This document shows positions 240 to 6,320 of a DNA stretch of 22,588 nucleotides, piece by piece (position 1 is the stretch's first letter; every line of letters starts with the position of its first letter). The notes under the pieces were generated by a model. The model had not been told where the DNA came from, did not search any database, and saw only the letters and a list, made by a program, of their open reading frames with translations. The stretch comes from Promethearchaeota archaeon. GTDB taxonomy: Archaea; Asgardarchaeota; Lokiarchaeia; Sigyniarchaeales; SOKP01. The translations under genes and the position numbers were made by a program. The stretch is from NCBI GenBank assembly GCA_016930515.1, contig JAFGGO010000007.1, positions 1 to 22,588 on the forward strand, in the 5' to 3' direction.

Positions 240-986
240 TTATTGTTGTTCAATTTTAAATATTTTTTTTACGAATTTAGGTAATGTAAATCCAAGATAG
301 AAATGAAAAGTAATATAAACATACATGATGCGGGTAATAAGGTTAATTATTTCTATCGTGCCGAAAAGTACTTCTAATATTCCTGCTATTAGGAGCGATA
401 AAAAGGCAAAAAATAACATCTCTCCTTTTTTCTTGATAATTGGATTCTCAGATTGAACCGCTGTACGAGAAAAGATTAAACCTGGAATCACAAAAAAAAT
501 TGCAATTAAACTAAGATTTGCAATTACGATCCAGCTCCATATTGCTGAATATGGACCAATTCGAATGCCAATACTCTTATAATCAGTACTAAAATATATC
601 AAGAAGATAATTTCTAATACAATGGTAGATGTAATAGCGCTCCAAATGAATGCATTTCGAAGGGTCTTTTTTTCGTTTAATACCAATTCTCCATATACCT
701 GTGGCCATAAGAGAAAAATAGGAAGTATAAGGACGACTTTGAGCAAGAAATAGATGGGATCGGGCAACCAAACATCGTTTCCAAAAAGCAACATTGAATC
801 GAATGTAAGAGCATCGCCCCACCATGCCGTGCTTAAGAAAGTCCATGTTAATCCAACATAGAGTAATTGTTTTTCTTTGAATTTTAAGTATCGCTTGATC
901 ATAAAGGCTCCTAATAAACCAGACATTACACAAAATAATGATGTTATTAAACCTATTGCGAAATTCATTGGTGATATTGGTGTCAT
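240..986 (-). CDS. Multi-pass (~7 TM) membrane protein of unknown function, possibly a stand-alone membrane sensor-type domain
   Basis: About seven hydrophobic segments in the 240..995 ORF. First ATG is at 986 (TTG at 995 is the alternative). A TTTATATA box lies upstream at ~1034-1041 on the minus strand. Confidence 0.75.
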   Translation of the reverse strand: MTPISPMNFAIGLITSLFCVMSGLLGAFMIKRYLKFKEKQLLYVGLTWTFLSTAWWGDALTFDSMLLFGNDVWLPDPIYFLLKVVLILPIFLLWPQVYGELVLNEKKTLRNAFIWSAITSTIVLEIIFLIYFSTDYKSIGIRIGPYSAIWSWIVIANLSLIAIFFVIPGLIFSRTAVQSENPIIKKKGEMLFFAFLSLLIAGILEVLFGTIEIINLITRIMYVYITFHFYLGFTLPKFVKKIFKIEQQ

Positions 987-1205
987 TTTTAACAATTCTT
1001 TTGTCTTTTAATTTAAGATAATGGGTCACAATATATATAAACCTTTATTATAATTGAGAATAGGAGAAGATTATTATTACAAAAATGTAAGCATCCAAAA
1101 AACGATTTGAAATACTATTCAATCAACAATTCCTAAAGCCTCAACCAATTTTAAATAAGATCCTTAATTTTAAAATTCATTCAATTTAGTGCAAATTTTA
1201 ACGAA

Positions 1206-2375
1206 ATGGGGCAATTTAATAACCTTCGACAAATATTGGAGCAGCTTACTTTTCCGCGCGTTTCAGGAAGCAAATTTGAACGAAAGGCTTACGAGATGGT
1301 TAAAATTGAAGTAGAAAAAATGGACCATCGAACAGAGACGCAAGAATTTACATTTAGCACGTTTTACTCGAGAATTCTTCCGAAAATCTTCTTCACGCTT
1401 ACTTTTATCTTACTTTTATTCTTTAATACCGAAAATTACATTTTAATGGCAATTACCGCCCTTGGCATGTTCATGACGGTATTAATATCCATTAATCCAA
1501 AGGATAGCCGATTGGGAAAGAAGCTCGAATCTCAAACGCTTTACACTAGATTACCTTCTATCAAGAATGGAAGCAATATTCCTAAAAATTTTTTAGACGA
1601 ATTAAAAAAAGACTCTAAACATATTTTCCTTTTTGCTCATTTGGATTCAAAAGGTCAAAGATTGACTATTACCTTAAGAATTATTTCTTTTAGGTTATGG
1701 TTATATTCCTACATGTTAAGTTGTACGATCATTTCATTAAATAATTATGTGTTTCAAACCTTTATTTTCGTTTTCTTGATAATTATTTTTTTATCTATTA
1801 ATTTAACAGCTACCACGATGATCTTGCTGAATACTACCAACAATAAGTCTCCTGGAGCAATTGATAATGGTTCTGGCGTAGTCGTGCTACTTGATATTCT
1901 CCGTCATTTTACAAACGATGGAATTCGATTGAGTAATTACGATTTATGGTTCGTGTTTACTGGGGCAGAGGAATGTGGAACGATGGGTGCACGTCATTTT
2001 CTTAAGATAATGAGAAAAGTTCCTGAAAAGGAGAATATATTAATTGTCAATTTTGATGGCATTGCAAAGGGTGTTGATTATTACAGCGGGCTCATTACTC
2101 CAAAAAAAAATAGAGAAATATATTCGAAGTTCCAGAAAATAGCTGAAGATATAAAATTTGATTTTACTCATTCTAATAAAGTCTTTGGAATTCGATCTGA
2201 TGGATTATATCTGAAAAATAAAGGTTTTGGGGGATTTGGGTTTGGAGACAACAGGACTTATAAGTATTATCATTCGCAACACGACTCAATTGACAAGGTA
2301 AATTTTGAAATCTTAGAAAAGCTTAGTAGGTTTGTTTTTAAAGCGCTCGTTGAATTAGACAAGATACAACTCTGA
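1206..2375 (+). CDS. M28 family zinc metallopeptidase with membrane-spanning insertions
   Basis: M28 motifs AHLDS, GAIDNGSG, FTGAEE, NFD and YHSQHD, plus two hydrophobic helical hairpins inserted in the catalytic domain. Confidence 0.88.
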   Translation: MGQFNNLRQILEQLTFPRVSGSKFERKAYEMVKIEVEKMDHRTETQEFTFSTFYSRILPKIFFTLTFILLLFFNTENYILMAITALGMFMTVLISINPKDSRLGKKLESQTLYTRLPSIKNGSNIPKNFLDELKKDSKHIFLFAHLDSKGQRLTITLRIISFRLWLYSYMLSCTIISLNNYVFQTFIFVFLIIIFLSINLTATTMILLNTTNNKSPGAIDNGSGVVVLLDILRHFTNDGIRLSNYDLWFVFTGAEECGTMGARHFLKIMRKVPEKENILIVNFDGIAKGVDYYSGLITPKKNREIYSKFQKIAEDIKFDFTHSNKVFGIRSDGLYLKNKGFGGFGFGDNRTYKYYHSQHDSIDKVNFEILEKLSRFVFKALVELDKIQL

Positions 2376-2489: not shown

Positions 2490-3392
2490 ATGAAAATTGG
2501 ATACACCTGTATCAATCAATCGTTAAGTTGTCGGAGTAGCAATACTTTCAGGTTAAAAAATTATAGTAAAAAAAGGTTAATTGAAGTAATCGAAGGAAAT
2601 CTAAATTGTCTCGAAAAAATTTTAACCTTTAATAAATCAAATGGGATTTATTTCTTCAGGATAACTTCAGGGCTCGTTCCTTTTGCGTCTCACTCCATAA
2701 TGGATTTCAATTGGCAAGATCATTTTAAACATCGATTTAGAGAATTGGGAACATTCGTAAAAAAGAATGAAATGCGCATTAGCATGCATCCTGGTCAATA
2801 TATTGTTTTGAATTCCACGAATCCCGCTGTTTATGAGAAATCCATCAAGGATTTAAAATATCACGTGGAGCTTCTCGACTTGATGGAACTGGATGCTAAC
2901 GCTAAAGTGCAGGTTCATGTGGGTGGTGTTTATGGTGATAAAACAAAGAGCTTGAAGCGCTTTATCAGTCGATATTATTCTCTGGAAGAAGAGATTAAAA
3001 GAAGATTGGTAATAGAAAACGACGATAAAAGCTACGCTCTACGAGACTGTATGGAAATTCATGATTCTACGAATATTCCCGTTATATTTGATGTATACCA
3101 TCACGCTTGTTTCAATTGCGGTGAAAGCATCCAAGAATGCTTTGAAGTATTTATAAAAACTTGGAAAGAAATCGATGGACTTCCAATTGTTCATTATAGC
3201 TCGCAACATCCCGACAAGGGAAAAGGTAGTCACTCCGACACGATGGATGTTAATAATTTTAGGAACTTCATAGACATGACAAAAAATTTCGACTTTGATC
3301 TAATGTTAGAAATTAAAGAAAAGGAAATCGCTGCTTTAAAGGCTTTGAAGTATTTAATAACAGATTCGCGATTAATATATAAATTATCTTAA
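2490..3392 (+). CDS. uvsE: UV DNA damage repair endonuclease (UVDE)
   Basis: MKIGYTCIN start and motifs FFRITS, RISMHPGQY, HVGGVYG, IENDD, FDVYHH, HYS, HSD and DLMLEIKEKE; 300 aa. Confidence 0.95.
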   Translation: MKIGYTCINQSLSCRSSNTFRLKNYSKKRLIEVIEGNLNCLEKILTFNKSNGIYFFRITSGLVPFASHSIMDFNWQDHFKHRFRELGTFVKKNEMRISMHPGQYIVLNSTNPAVYEKSIKDLKYHVELLDLMELDANAKVQVHVGGVYGDKTKSLKRFISRYYSLEEEIKRRLVIENDDKSYALRDCMEIHDSTNIPVIFDVYHHACFNCGESIQECFEVFIKTWKEIDGLPIVHYSSQHPDKGKGSHSDTMDVNNFRNFIDMTKNFDFDLMLEIKEKEIAALKALKYLITDSRLIYKLS

Positions 3393-3890
3393 ATTCAATT
3401 CGCGTCCCAATATAGATTCAAACTCGTCCTTAATATCTAATAATGCTTTTTTATATTGCTTTAGCTCTGGATTTTTTGGAAAATAAGAAATTGTGAAGTT
3501 AACCGAATGGTCGTTAACACAAGAAATTTTAAAAAATTTTAAACATTGTTCGAGTTGGCTCAGAAGATTTTTGTTCGAAGTCTGCGGTATTAAGTCTAGG
3601 TTAATCTCGTCGATTTTCCATCTTCCCTCTTCGGTTTTAGACATCGTGAGGTTAAACTCTTTTGGAACAAAATCTAATTTTTGAGTTAACTTTCCAATGC
3701 ATGTGTTAAGCATCGTTGCTATGCAGTTGAACACGGCCTTGTTGATGATATTTGAAGCCTCTTGGCTCAAACCTTGGCGAGTATCTATTTCTACGCATTC
3801 TTTTAATTTATTGTCACTGAATACGCACTTGTATTGATTTTCTTTATTGAATGGTATTAACTTTATGGTGGATGGCTTATCTTCAGACAT
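3384..3890 (-). CDS. OsmC/Ohr-like protein (divergent)
   Basis: AVFNC followed later by EEGRWKIDEINL and a C-terminal Cys (KISC) matches the two-Cys OsmC layout. The 3' end overlaps uvsE by 9 nt. Confidence 0.5.
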   Translation of the reverse strand: MSEDKPSTIKLIPFNKENQYKCVFSDNKLKECVEIDTRQGLSQEASNIINKAVFNCIATMLNTCIGKLTQKLDFVPKEFNLTMSKTEEGRWKIDEINLDLIPQTSNKNLLSQLEQCLKFFKISCVNDHSVNFTISYFPKNPELKQYKKALLDIKDEFESILGRELNLR

Positions 3891-3992
3891 TTTAACTCTT
3901 AAATTTCTTTTCTTTAATACATTACGAATAAAATTAAATAGTATTTTATGTTTGTTGTTTATGAAAAATAACTCTTTTTATCATTGATATTT

Positions 3993-4793
3993 ATGGCTAA
4001 CATCAGAATTGGATGTGCTGGTTGGGATTATAAGGATTGGAAGGGATCTTTTTATCCAAAAAAAATTGAAAAACTCGAACACTTAGAATTTTATGCTCGT
4101 TATTTCGATTTCGTGGAGATTAACTCCACATTTTATAATATTCCCTCAGAAAGCGCTGTAATACATTGGGGGGCGTGTGTATCAAATTCATTTCAATTTT
4201 CCGTAAAACTATGGCAAGATATTTCTCACGATCTAAACAATTCCGATTTGGAGTCTTTAGTTAGCCAATTTTTTTCCAGATTTACACCACTTGGTGATAA
4301 AATTGCTCTTTTTTTGATCCAATTTCCCGCTCGTTTTCAACATTCTGAGATTCACGAGCATTTATTCAAGCTTCTATTGAATAGCTTTCCTTCAGAATAT
4401 AAATTTGTTTTCGAATTTCGCCACGAATCATGGTTCGATTCGGATATGTTATCGAAGATATTTAAAAAAAATAACTTAATTATTGGAACAACTTATCTTG
4501 AAGGTGTTAAATCCTATTTCCATCCAAATCAAGACTTATATTATATTAGACTTATTGGAGATCGAAAATTAACTAAGTTTGATGGGATTCAAAGGAATCA
4601 ATCACTTATTACAAACGATTTAGTTAAACGCATCCATCAACTAAACAAATCCAATATTGTAAAACAAATTTTCATTGTTGTGAACAATCATTATGAGGGA
4701 TTCTCTCCCGATACTGTTAATAAAATCAAGAAGAAGCTCCAATTGCCAATTCTGTCGTTTTCTAATCAAAAAAAATTAGAAGATTTCTTTTAA
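3993..4793 (+). CDS. DUF72 (YecE-like) TIM-barrel protein
   Basis: IGCAGWDYKDWKGSFYP, VEINSTFY, LIQFP, FEFRHESW, YIRLIG and NNHYEG motifs. ATG at 3993 preferred over TTG at 3984. Confidence 0.93.
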   Translation: MANIRIGCAGWDYKDWKGSFYPKKIEKLEHLEFYARYFDFVEINSTFYNIPSESAVIHWGACVSNSFQFSVKLWQDISHDLNNSDLESLVSQFFSRFTPLGDKIALFLIQFPARFQHSEIHEHLFKLLLNSFPSEYKFVFEFRHESWFDSDMLSKIFKKNNLIIGTTYLEGVKSYFHPNQDLYYIRLIGDRKLTKFDGIQRNQSLITNDLVKRIHQLNKSNIVKQIFIVVNNHYEGFSPDTVNKIKKKLQLPILSFSNQKKLEDFF

Positions 4794-4824
4794 AAAAATG
4801 AAATGAAAAAATATTAAAAAAAAA

Positions 4825-5004
4825 TTATTTGCTTTTTTTCTCGTCTTCTTCTTTCAAGAACGAATAGGAAATCACGCTTTTTTCTTCGATTTCCAGGCTT
4901 TCAATTAAGTCTTTTAAATGACTTTTTTGGGGGTGTTGCTCCAATTCATTTTCACCTTTTACTTTTTTTTCAATTTCCAGGACAAAGACGAATTTTAATA
5001 TCAA
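4825..5004 (-). CDS. Small charged protein, 59 aa, missing from the ORF track (MILKFVFVLEIEKKVKGENELEQHPQKSHLKDLIESLEIEEKSVISYSFLKEEDEKKSK)
   Basis: Translated by hand: TTG at 5004 to TAA at 4825. GGAGA SD lies 5 nt upstream, codons are purine-rich (Glu/Lys), and a U-rich tract follows the stop. Confidence 0.65.
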   Translation of the reverse strand: MILKFVFVLEIEKKVKGENELEQHPQKSHLKDLIESLEIEEKSVISYSFLKEEDEKKSK

Positions 5005-5027
5005 ATGCGTCTCCTGTAAAAACGCAT
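5005..5027 (-). promoter_or_regulatory. Hairpin occluding the Shine-Dalgarno of the 59-aa ORF
   Basis: AUGCGUUUUU-ACA-GGAGACGCAU forms up to 10 bp including 3 G-U pairs that exist only on the minus strand. It ends immediately before the UUG start. Confidence 0.55.
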
Positions 5028-5090
5028 CAAAAATCTTAGATTCGTAGAAAATAAAACGCTAAATCCATAGAAAAGAAGTAATGAATCGCC

Positions 5091-5203
5091 AGAGACGCTT
5101 TCATGAGTTATTGACAAGTACCGTTATATGCCCATACTGGCAGGTACTTAGTTCTCATGTATTCGTGAGTGGTTGGCACCACGCACTTAAATCGTCTCTC
5201 CAT
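5091..5203 (-). ncRNA. Candidate structured RNA (three-way junction); family not recognised
   Basis: Nested stems: 5091-5097/5193-5199 (7 bp), 5165-5173/5178-5186 (8 of 9 bp, 4-nt loop), 5102-5107/5154-5159 (6 bp), 5116-5122/5143-5149 (7 bp) and 5129-5132/5139-5142 (4 bp). It is GC-richer than the flanks and begins ~25 nt downstream of a BRE-TATA. Confidence 0.65.
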
Positions 5204-5227
5204 AAATAAAACAAATCATCCATTGGA

Positions 5228-5242
5228 TATAAAATTTTCGCT
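5228..5242 (-). promoter_or_regulatory. Archaeal BRE-TATA promoter (AGCGAAAA-TTTTATA) driving the structured RNA and small ORF
   Basis: Close match to purine-rich BRE plus TTTATA. The predicted start near 5203 coincides with the 5' end of the RNA structure. Confidence 0.6.
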
Positions 5243-5258
5243 TGAAGTCCATCCCTGA

Positions 5259-5678
5259 TCAAACAATATTAGGTAATATAGCATTACTCGGACATTCTTT
5301 AAAGCATTTCAAGCACTTTGAGCACCCTATTATTTCAGAAACTTTGAATTCAATGCGTTCTTGGCCAATTTCGTCAGTGGAAATAATAAATAAGTTCTTA
5401 GGGCAAAAATCTTTTTTTAAACACATTTTGCATAATACGCACTTATCTGAATCTATTGAAAAACCATCTAAAGAACCCTCTGCTATAGAGATGACCTCAA
5501 TTGCTCCGTGTTCACAAACATCCACGCATTTTAAACATCCTTCGCATTTATCGTAATTCACGTAACGAAGTGAATTGTCGAAAAAGATGGCTTTTGGGTG
5601 ACAGCTATAGAAACATCTTTGACATCTAACGCAGAGGGAAGGATTTATCGAAATTGGAAATAATTTCTCATTTTTCAT
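5259..5678 (-). CDS. Polyferredoxin with four [4Fe-4S] motifs
   Basis: CVRCQRCFYSC, CEGCLKCVDVC, CVLCKMC..FCP and CSKCLKCFKECP. ATG at 5678 preferred over TTG at 5714. Confidence 0.9.
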   Translation of the reverse strand: MKNEKLFPISINPSLCVRCQRCFYSCHPKAIFFDNSLRYVNYDKCEGCLKCVDVCEHGAIEVISIAEGSLDGFSIDSDKCVLCKMCLKKDFCPKNLFIISTDEIGQERIEFKVSEIIGCSKCLKCFKECPSNAILPNIV

Positions 5679-5792: not shown

Positions 5793-6320
5793 ATGAAATA
5801 CGAAGCTCTTAAAAATACTGATTTTTTTAGTTTTTTTAATTTTCAAGAGTCAGAATTTTTTAATCTTTCTTTCAAGGGAATTTGCCTCAAACCCGGAGGA
5901 TTTCAAGAATATATTGATTTAATTCTATGTCTAGACAACGAGGAGGAAATCGTACAAGCCTTCCTTTACCTCGATCGAGAGTGGATTGGAAACGAGGCTT
6001 CTATAAACCCATTTGGAAAGGATATTTCAAAGAGTTTTATCGACGCCTTATATCCTAAGGATTTGAACGACGAATTTAAACCATCGTTAATAACGAGCTT
6101 GTGGAACTTAAAAGGAACGAAAGATACCATAATTTGCCTCGATAAAGTGATACAAGCCTGGGAAAATTCTGATAGCCAAGTGAAGGCGTTTTTGGATGCG
6201 TATCGGGGCTCATTAAAAGAAGTTTCAAAAAAGAATAACGATAATGTCGAGATTCGGATGAAAAATCTAATAGAAAACGGAAAAAATCGACTTTTAATAA
6301 CCATTATATTTCCAAGATGA
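5793..6320 (+). CDS. Hypothetical soluble protein
   Basis: 175-aa ORF with ATG start and normal composition, 9 nt upstream of the next co-oriented gene. No motif recognised. Confidence 0.75.
   Translation: MKYEALKNTDFFSFFNFQESEFFNLSFKGICLKPGGFQEYIDLILCLDNEEEIVQAFLYLDREWIGNEASINPFGKDISKSFIDALYPKDLNDEFKPSLITSLWNLKGTKDTIICLDKVIQAWENSDSQVKAFLDAYRGSLKEVSKKNNDNVEIRMKNLIENGKNRLLITIIFPR

Follow-up and report, generated by a model that had tools for sequence, protein, structure and literature searches.

A micro-protein gene preceded by a structured RNA with an internal open reading frame in one genus of Promethearchaeota (Asgard archaea)

Organization of the locus

The window analysed here is a stretch of 22,588 nucleotides (contig JAFGGO010000007.1, positions 1 to 22,588) from a 4.0-Mb assembly of a Promethearchaeota archaeon, and its DNA is AT-rich (32% G+C). 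A compact module made up of a promoter, a folded RNA and a small gene lies entirely on the minus strand, and all coordinates of the module are window positions. Eight modules (n = 8) are compared: those of the genome of the window (G000), of two genomes of the same genus (G003 and G005) and of five metagenome contigs; G004 is a further genome. The features of the locus, in the order of transcription, are as follows:

5714-5259, minus strand: gene of a 4Fe-4S protein (Pfam Fer4), the end of which is the upstream neighbour of the promoter
5241-5227, minus strand: BRE-like GCGAAAA and TATA box TTTTATAT, a promoter at equal distance in 8/8 modules
5203-5108, minus strand: leader ORF of 31 codons (ATG 5203-5201, TAA 5110-5108) for a basic peptide of unconserved sequence
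5199-5091, minus strand: structured RNA domain (-38.6 kcal/mol, z = -3.4)
5199-5193 with 5097-5091, minus strand: closing helix P1 (AGAGACG/CGUCUCU)
5186-5165, minus strand: hairpin P2, part of the RNA domain
5159-5102, minus strand: long arm, part of the RNA domain
5098-5091, minus strand: 3' strand of P1, GCGUCUCU, partner of the purine element
5081-5069, minus strand: pyrimidine tract after the closing helix, with a longest T run of 4
5059-5053, minus strand: GCGUUUU, as read in the sequence
5028-5004, minus strand: local hairpin that encloses the purine element (11 bp including G-U pairs, -10.3 kcal/mol)
5016-4984, minus strand: second alternative hairpin, between the purine element and CGUCUUU (-7.9 kcal/mol, z = -3.4)
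5014-5007, minus strand: purine element GGAGACGC, the anti-P1 strand, SD-like and with no conserved start codon behind it
4958-4952, minus strand: SD site AAGGUGA (including GGUGA 4956-4952), 7 nt before TTG 4944
4944-4825, minus strand: gene of a 39-residue acidic micro-protein (TTG start, TAA stop; core motif LEIEEKSVISYS)
4824-4768, minus strand: strong oligo-T terminator region (T9, T6, T7 and T8) behind the small ORF

The spacer between the RNA domain and the region of the small gene is about 146 nt in the window.

The micro-protein gene

An earlier note on this DNA had described the small ORF as a protein of 59 residues. Though the frame 5004-4825 is open, the conserved protein is one of 39 residues that starts at TTG 4944: for the 15 database relatives and the homologues of related genomes, the alignment with the longer frame is confined to its 39 C-terminal residues, and the homologues carry an SD (GUGAGGUG or AGGAGGUG) at the position that matches the SD of the window. 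The arrangement is the same in G003, where the ORF is of 38 residues with an ATG start and a strong SD, and the TTG GAG CAA of the window aligns codon for codon with the ATG GAA CAA of that genome. A profile search of 5.8 billion proteins finds 16 members, including the window's own 59-residue call; nearly all are of 34-39 residues and share one start position. An exhaustive search of 1.84 billion representatives finds 14 matches, of which three are long proteins that match over short stretches only. The variable sites of the micro-protein gene are distributed 10/3/18 over the three codon positions, and this third-position-dominated variation indicates protein coding under purifying selection. 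As judged from these alignments, the conserved gene is 4944-4825 and the 59-residue gene call is over-extended.

Two further parts of the earlier description change with the start codon. The element GGAGACGC, which the note had labelled as the SD of this ORF, does not have that role for the conserved frame, because the homologues begin level with TTG 4944 and have an SD of their own in front. The beta-strand that had been read in the protein falls in the non-conserved N-terminal extension, which is probably untranslated. The micro-protein itself is acidic and hydrophilic, and is modelled by AlphaFold2 (mean pLDDT 75) as one helix of residues 5-17 followed by an invariant KSVISYS stretch; a single helix of this type is no fold worth a structure search. 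A Pfam search with the micro-protein gives no match, and an ESM Atlas feature search gives no usable match.

A folded RNA domain with an open reading frame

The RNA domain 5199-5091 folds at -38.6 kcal/mol (z = -3.4), and its helices P1, P2 and P3 covary across the eight modules, with covariation counts that are non-independent because the eight sequences are related and belong to one lineage. In the RNA alignment 89% of the cells are paired, versus 37-52% when the partners are slid, and the unpaired motifs of the domain are also conserved. Compensatory changes are present in P3, where residues of the encoded peptide are altered on both sides of the helix. On this comparative evidence, the RNA structure is under selection. 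The central part of the domain differs between the two clades, being a three-way junction in G000 and G003 versus a four-way junction in the other clade, such that one set of conserved bases is paired in different ways in the two. Rfam 15 returns zero matches at gathering score on the window, chance-level matches only at E <= 10 on 4700-5400, and no match at E <= 1 on five homologous loci; a tRNA/tmRNA search also gives no match.

The domain coincides with an open reading frame of 31 codons. Its start ATG lies just before P1 and its TAA lies inside a conserved UCAAUAA motif, both of which are invariant in 8/8 modules, and the ORF is of identical length in all eight, with the other frames holding 1-4 stops each. 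When the columns of the alignment are permuted, the frame is open in 8/8 modules in only 5 of 20000 trials (p = 2.5e-4), a result that contradicts a pure noncoding aptamer. The centre of the TATA box is about 27 nt upstream of A5203; thus, the predicted transcript start falls on the ATG and would give a leaderless mRNA.

The peptide is far less constrained than the frame. Variable sites of the leader are spread 19/19/21 over the codon positions, with no periodicity, and non-synonymous versus synonymous differences stand at 451:77; the BLOSUM62 score is 2.1 for leader frame 1 versus 1.2 and 1.0 for frames 2 and 3. Amino-acid runs, regulatory codon runs and known arrest or stalling motifs are absent from the eight leader peptides. 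The leader stop codon lies 7-12 nt before the strand that is proposed to switch. Because the frame is open in 8/8 modules, the variable sites (19/19/21) and differences (451:77) follow no coding pattern and the P3 changes alter residues, the frame and the RNA fold are maintained while the peptide sequence is free, which is the look of a translated regulatory leader ORF. The 31-codon ORF that is kept, the clade-variable central fold and the lack of an Rfam match make a strict metabolite riboswitch doubtful.

Pairing between the closing helix and the purine element

Much of what the earlier note had read in the letters of the spacer holds. The element GGAGACGC is located at 5014-5007 and is enclosed in a local hairpin; it is complementary over 8 nt to GCGUCUCU (5098-5091) with seven Watson-Crick pairs and one G-U; together with the letters that follow, it resembles the 5' end of the RNA (GAGACG..AUUU) as the near-repeat that had been claimed; and the GCGUUUU copy (5059-5053) and the pyrimidine tract (5081-5069) are both present. 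The local hairpin 5028-5004 is stable (-10.3 kcal/mol, z = -5.4; 0/200 shuffles fold equally well), and an equivalent hairpin is significant in only one further module (L045) besides that of the window; it is thus not retained as a conserved feature. In G000 only, CGUCUUU 17 nt downstream offers the element another partner (5016-4984), which gives a small copy of the closing helix; the G003 spacer shows no counterpart.

The complementarity to P1 is found in 8/8 modules. In the window no other part of the spacer pairs with the P1 3' strand as well as the element does, at -15.1 kcal/mol versus -10.0 +/- 2.2 kcal/mol for shuffled spacers (p = 0.022), and the 7-mer GAGACGC occurs four times on the two strands of the window versus 0.5 expected, two of the four sites being the partner sites of the P1/anti-P1 pairing. 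In 8/8 modules the purine element that complements the P1 3' strand lies 76-88 nt after the RNA, and in 7/8 of them the best spacer partner is found at this distance of 75-88 nt downstream. The anti-P1 energies range from -13 to -21 kcal/mol and beat at least 95% of shuffles in six of the eight modules. The distance from the RNA to the element is fixed; that from the element to the start codon is variable (60-103 nt).

The two strands also differ in concert between the clades. In G000 and G003 the strand GCGUCUCU is matched by the element GGAGACGC or AGAGACGAG, and in the larger clade the strand CUCACCUCU pairs with the element AGAGGUGAG in an uninterrupted helix of as many as 11 pairs (-18 to -21 kcal/mol). 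Cognate combinations of tail and spacer gain 4-10 kcal/mol over cross-clade ones: the tails of G000 and G003 favour the spacers of G000 and G003 (-11 to -18 versus -8 to -12), and those of the other clade are poor partners for the spacer of G000 (-8 to -10). By these sequence comparisons, the complementarity between the element and P1 is more than chance, and the element changes with P1 between clades. Of the competing pairings first put forward for this locus, the alternative helix is thus conserved in 8/8 modules and clade-specific, but the element in it is not the SD of the conserved ORF.

The element is better described as an SD-like decoy than as the SD of the conserved ORF. In the larger clade it matches an SD perfectly but is not followed by a start codon at SD spacing. 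In G003 and G005, the stretch of 16S rRNA picked up by the search pattern has GGAUCACCUCC as its last letters (read up to there), and on this basis the switching strand of the larger clade mimics the anti-SD. Other roles for these sequences were considered and rejected. The element does not serve as the SD of an upstream ORF, in that starts are 12-17 nt away in most modules and absent in G003, and the short frames found there are not conserved. Pairing of the P1 3' strand with the true SD is strong in 4/8 modules only and is absent in G000 and G003, and pairing of the pyrimidine tract with the SD or the start is no better than that of shuffled tracts (p = 0.15-0.95).

Linkage and distribution

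The genes of the micro-protein family are of two types: type A genes, which are preceded by the RNA, and type B paralogues, which are without it. The RNA ends 145-194 nt before the ORF in 8/8 distinct modules with differing flanking genes, a linkage that bears out the module of leader RNA and small protein supposed in the earlier note. Every type A copy with enough upstream DNA carries the RNA, and every RNA copy has the gene downstream.

The RNA was searched for in 151 genomes of the order with a covariance model (R1) and a clade model (R2), and by both models true copies are found in 3/6 genomes of this genus only. Weak covariance-model matches outside the genus (L082 and L083) lie inside coding DNA and were rejected. 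Pattern scans of metagenome and genome contigs that start from the RNA give 24 loci, three of which are true by the model and all already known; the remaining loci are chance matches, some of them in bacteria. RNA homologues unlinked to the ORF, which would have counted against the module of the earlier note, were looked for in the 151-genome model search and the contig pattern scans, and none was found.

Transcription of the module

With the background of T runs calibrated on the window only, 52% of random 60-nt windows drawn from this DNA hold a run of at least four T and only 5-6% hold one of at least seven; the T4 that follows the closing helix is thus no evidence of a terminator. In the window, only T4-T5 is found between the RNA and the ORF versus T9, T6, T7 and T8 after the ORF, and other gene ends of the window have T6-T10. 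In the other modules, runs of T6 lie behind the RNA in two and the tract of one has no run above T3. An alignment of the eight modules reveals no conserved promoter box at a fixed distance from the second ORF; A/T-rich boxes at +15 to +30 after the RNA and right behind the purine element are possible TATA boxes. A leaderless first ORF followed by an SD-led second ORF is an archaeal operon pattern, as in Sulfolobus. The background-level T4-T5 of the spacer, the T9/T6/T7/T8 after the ORF, the lack of a fixed promoter box and this operon pattern indirectly favour a single transcript that would span the leader and the small ORF.

Proposed mechanism

The region 5241-4768 of the minus strand is proposed to be one small transcription unit, conserved in one genus of Promethearchaeota. 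The reading preferred here, to which a probability of roughly 0.45 is given, is that the closing helix and the anti-helix compete within one transcript, with the outcome set by leader translation or by folding, and that this competition tunes translation of the micro-protein. The TATA promoter would start the RNA at the AUG that opens the 31-codon leader ORF, and the P1 3' strand (5098-5091) would pair either with the P1 5' strand or with the element at 5014-5007. Ribosomes that start on the 5'-terminal AUG would read the leader and melt P1, and by stopping 7-12 nt before the switching strand may choose between re-formation of P1 and formation of anti-P1. The resulting fold of the spacer would then set the access to the SD and start of the micro-protein gene, so that the module would act as a translation-sensing attenuator, the mechanism favoured here. 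We infer all four of the components of this scheme, namely co-transcription, leader translation, the direction of the switch and its signal.

When anti-P1 is enforced in folding calculations, the SD/start becomes more accessible in 6/8 modules, and the mean accessibility goes from 0.48 to 0.67. The shift is modest, with one module showing none and another the opposite change, and it is derived from thermodynamic folds, which are unreliable for 300-nt AU-rich RNAs. In six of the eight modules, P1 is the preferred state by 4-10 kcal/mol. Because the SD/start opens with anti-P1 in these models, the calculations suggest that P1 would be the state of low translation and anti-P1 that of high translation, a direction which is likewise deduced. 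The most far-reaching version is that this would be the first translation-sensing attenuator described in archaea: a leaderless ORF would lie in the fold, and an anti-SD-mimicking strand would alternate between pairing with the leader and with an SD decoy, and so control the synthesis of a lineage-specific Asgard micro-protein, a paralogue of which shares an operon with a ribbon-helix-helix regulator beside amtB-glnK. This version is tentative and less likely than not.

Alternative readings

An arrangement of two transcripts is unlikely. It supposes a small RNA, possibly dual-function and encoding the basic peptide of 31 residues, that ends in the pyrimidine tract, together with an mRNA that starts from the spacer, with the pairing taking place in trans with the 5' UTR of the neighbour. 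The RNA does have a conserved promoter of its own, P1 is followed by T-rich tracts, which reach T4 in the window and T6 in two modules, and TATA-like boxes are seen at +15 to +30 and directly behind the purine element; yet the T4 is at background (52% of windows), one module has nothing above T3, and promoter boxes at a fixed distance from the ORF start are lacking. The geometry also argues against it, in that a distance from RNA to element fixed in 8/8 modules is needless for pairing in trans, the pairing strand would be locked in P1 of the folded RNA, and an mRNA that starts after the element would exclude the element as a target. Somewhat less probable again is a ligand-binding riboswitch, in which 5199-5091 would form the aptamer, the ligand would stabilise P1 and free or occupy the element, and the open frame would be incidental. 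The P1 3' strand has an alternative partner that is conserved and co-varies with it, as in a classical expression platform; the helices covary, the unpaired motifs are conserved, z is -3.4 for the fold, and small ORFs are known to occur behind glutamine riboswitches, which provides a precedent. Against the aptamer stand a frame that is open in 8/8 modules (p = 2.5e-4) and that starts at the predicted transcript start, a core in which the same bases are re-paired between a three-way junction (G000/G003) and a four-way junction (the others), and an Rfam search that is without a match even at E <= 10 for the window or E <= 1 for five relatives; moreover, the regulated gene is neither metabolic nor a transporter, and the family is limited to one genus.

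A simple operon of two cistrons, one for a basic and one for an acidic micro-protein, with folds that stabilise the mRNA and an element that is a decayed duplicate of the RNA 5' end, is improbable. While the element and the letters that follow resemble the RNA 5' end in the window (GAGACG..AUUU), the element of the larger clade complements a longer stretch on the 3' side (up to 11 bp) instead of copying the P1 5' strand, and the element has changed in step with P1 between clades. Similarly, the BLOSUM62 score of leader frame 1 (2.1 versus 1.2 and 1.0) and the opposite charges of the two products would fit two cistrons, but the leader is without third-position bias and its non-synonymous to synonymous differences are 451:77. 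Very improbable is the model of the earlier note, here confined to this genome, in which translation starts at TTG 5004 behind GGAG (5014-5011) to give 59 residues, and the SD is sequestered by the hairpin 5028-5004 or by the P1 3' strand. The frame 5004-4825 is indeed open, GGAG lies 6 nt before TTG 5004, and the conserved start of G000 is a weak one, TTG, whose SD is shorter than those of the relatives; by contrast, no homologue has anything that corresponds to the extension of 20 residues, an in-frame stop just upstream of the start excludes it in G003 and L046, and no start codon is found at SD distance behind the element in G003 or in the other clade. A type I toxin-antitoxin system was also considered and rejected: the protein is acidic and hydrophilic, and the RNA is on the same strand as the ORF and does not overlap it.

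Comparison with known regulatory systems

The competition of closing helix and anti-helix proposed here appears to have its closest experimentally shown analogue in the leaderless short-ORF attenuators of mycobacteria, in which the 5'-terminal AUG of a polycistronic mRNA opens a short ORF that is unannotated, and leaderless short ORFs attenuate downstream translation (Canestrari et al., bioRxiv 10.1101/834739). The two systems share a leaderless short ORF, a stable duplex at its flank and an SD-led gene downstream. The mycobacterial ORFs use a polycysteine tract as the sensor in the control of cysteine metabolism, whereas the archaeal leader is without a codon tract. The archaeal system further differs in its host and in its downstream gene, which encodes a micro-protein, and it is known here from sequence alone.

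In attenuation of the ermC, cat and cmlA type, translation of a leader selects the fold in a relay of pairing segments. The archaeal module is similar in that a segment within or beside the leader ORF pairs with a second segment, which can instead pair with a third. In the erm-type relay a fourth segment holds the SD of the regulated gene, whereas here the third segment is an SD look-alike located about 60-100 nt before the real SD; unlike in that relay, no stalling motif is recognised in the leader and sequestration of the real SD is only putative. With translational riboswitches (glutamine-II / Downstream-peptide), the module shares a P1 3' strand that takes part in a mutually exclusive helix, a short ORF downstream and covarying helices, but it is unlike them in lacking an Rfam match, in the open and apparently translated frame of its 'aptamer' and in the clade-variable fold of its core. 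The dual-function RNAs SgrS/SgrT, RNAIII/hld and SR1/SR1P act in trans on distant targets. Like these, the archaeal RNA is a structured RNA (~110-230 nt) that also holds a short ORF; by contrast, its sole supported partner is encoded by the same DNA strand at a distance that stays fixed, and its peptide is unconstrained.

Cis-regulatory RNAs are, to our knowledge, scarce in archaea. Within the literature searched, no such element is described in Asgard archaea or Lokiarchaeota, no cis-regulatory RNA is described for Asgard archaea, and no attenuation by a leader peptide or leader ORF is reported for archaea. If the proposed mechanism is true, ribosome-coupled RNA switching would operate in the closest prokaryotic relatives of eukaryotes. 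The module is a compact, mutable test object for reporter assays and is testable in cultured relatives. For annotation, the gains are a recognised family of 34-39-residue proteins, a 31-codon ORF that had been unannotated, and the correction of a 59-residue call to 39 residues.

Paralogues and neighbouring genes

The type B paralogues follow a ribbon-helix-helix (PF01402) regulator and adjoin amtB-glnK, a setting which hints that the micro-protein family acts with the ribbon-helix-helix regulator or in nitrogen control. In the genome of the window (contig C113, locus L043), the type B paralogue is of 37 residues (877-764, minus strand) and comes directly after the regulator, a ribbon-helix-helix protein (PF01402) of 197 residues (903-1496, minus strand). 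This type B gene converges on amtB-glnK, and the layout is common to G003, G004 and G005. A further type B paralogue, at locus L044 (365-562, minus strand) on contig C292 of G003, is called as 66 residues (P0007), and a near-identical database entry (P0010) stops at 39 residues; this gap in length points to the loss of a stop codon or to a difference between assemblies.

Around the module in the window, the ORF at 3984-4793 (plus strand) encodes a DUF72 protein (Pfam); in at least three modules, DUF72 is convergent with the gene of the micro-protein. The ORF at 2490-3392 (plus strand) is taken by us, on its N-terminal sequence, to resemble a UV damage endonuclease. Two other neighbours, at 5793-6320 (plus strand, 175 residues) and 3384-3890 (minus strand, 168 residues), are conserved and without a match in Pfam, and the 175-residue ORF is syntenic in G003.
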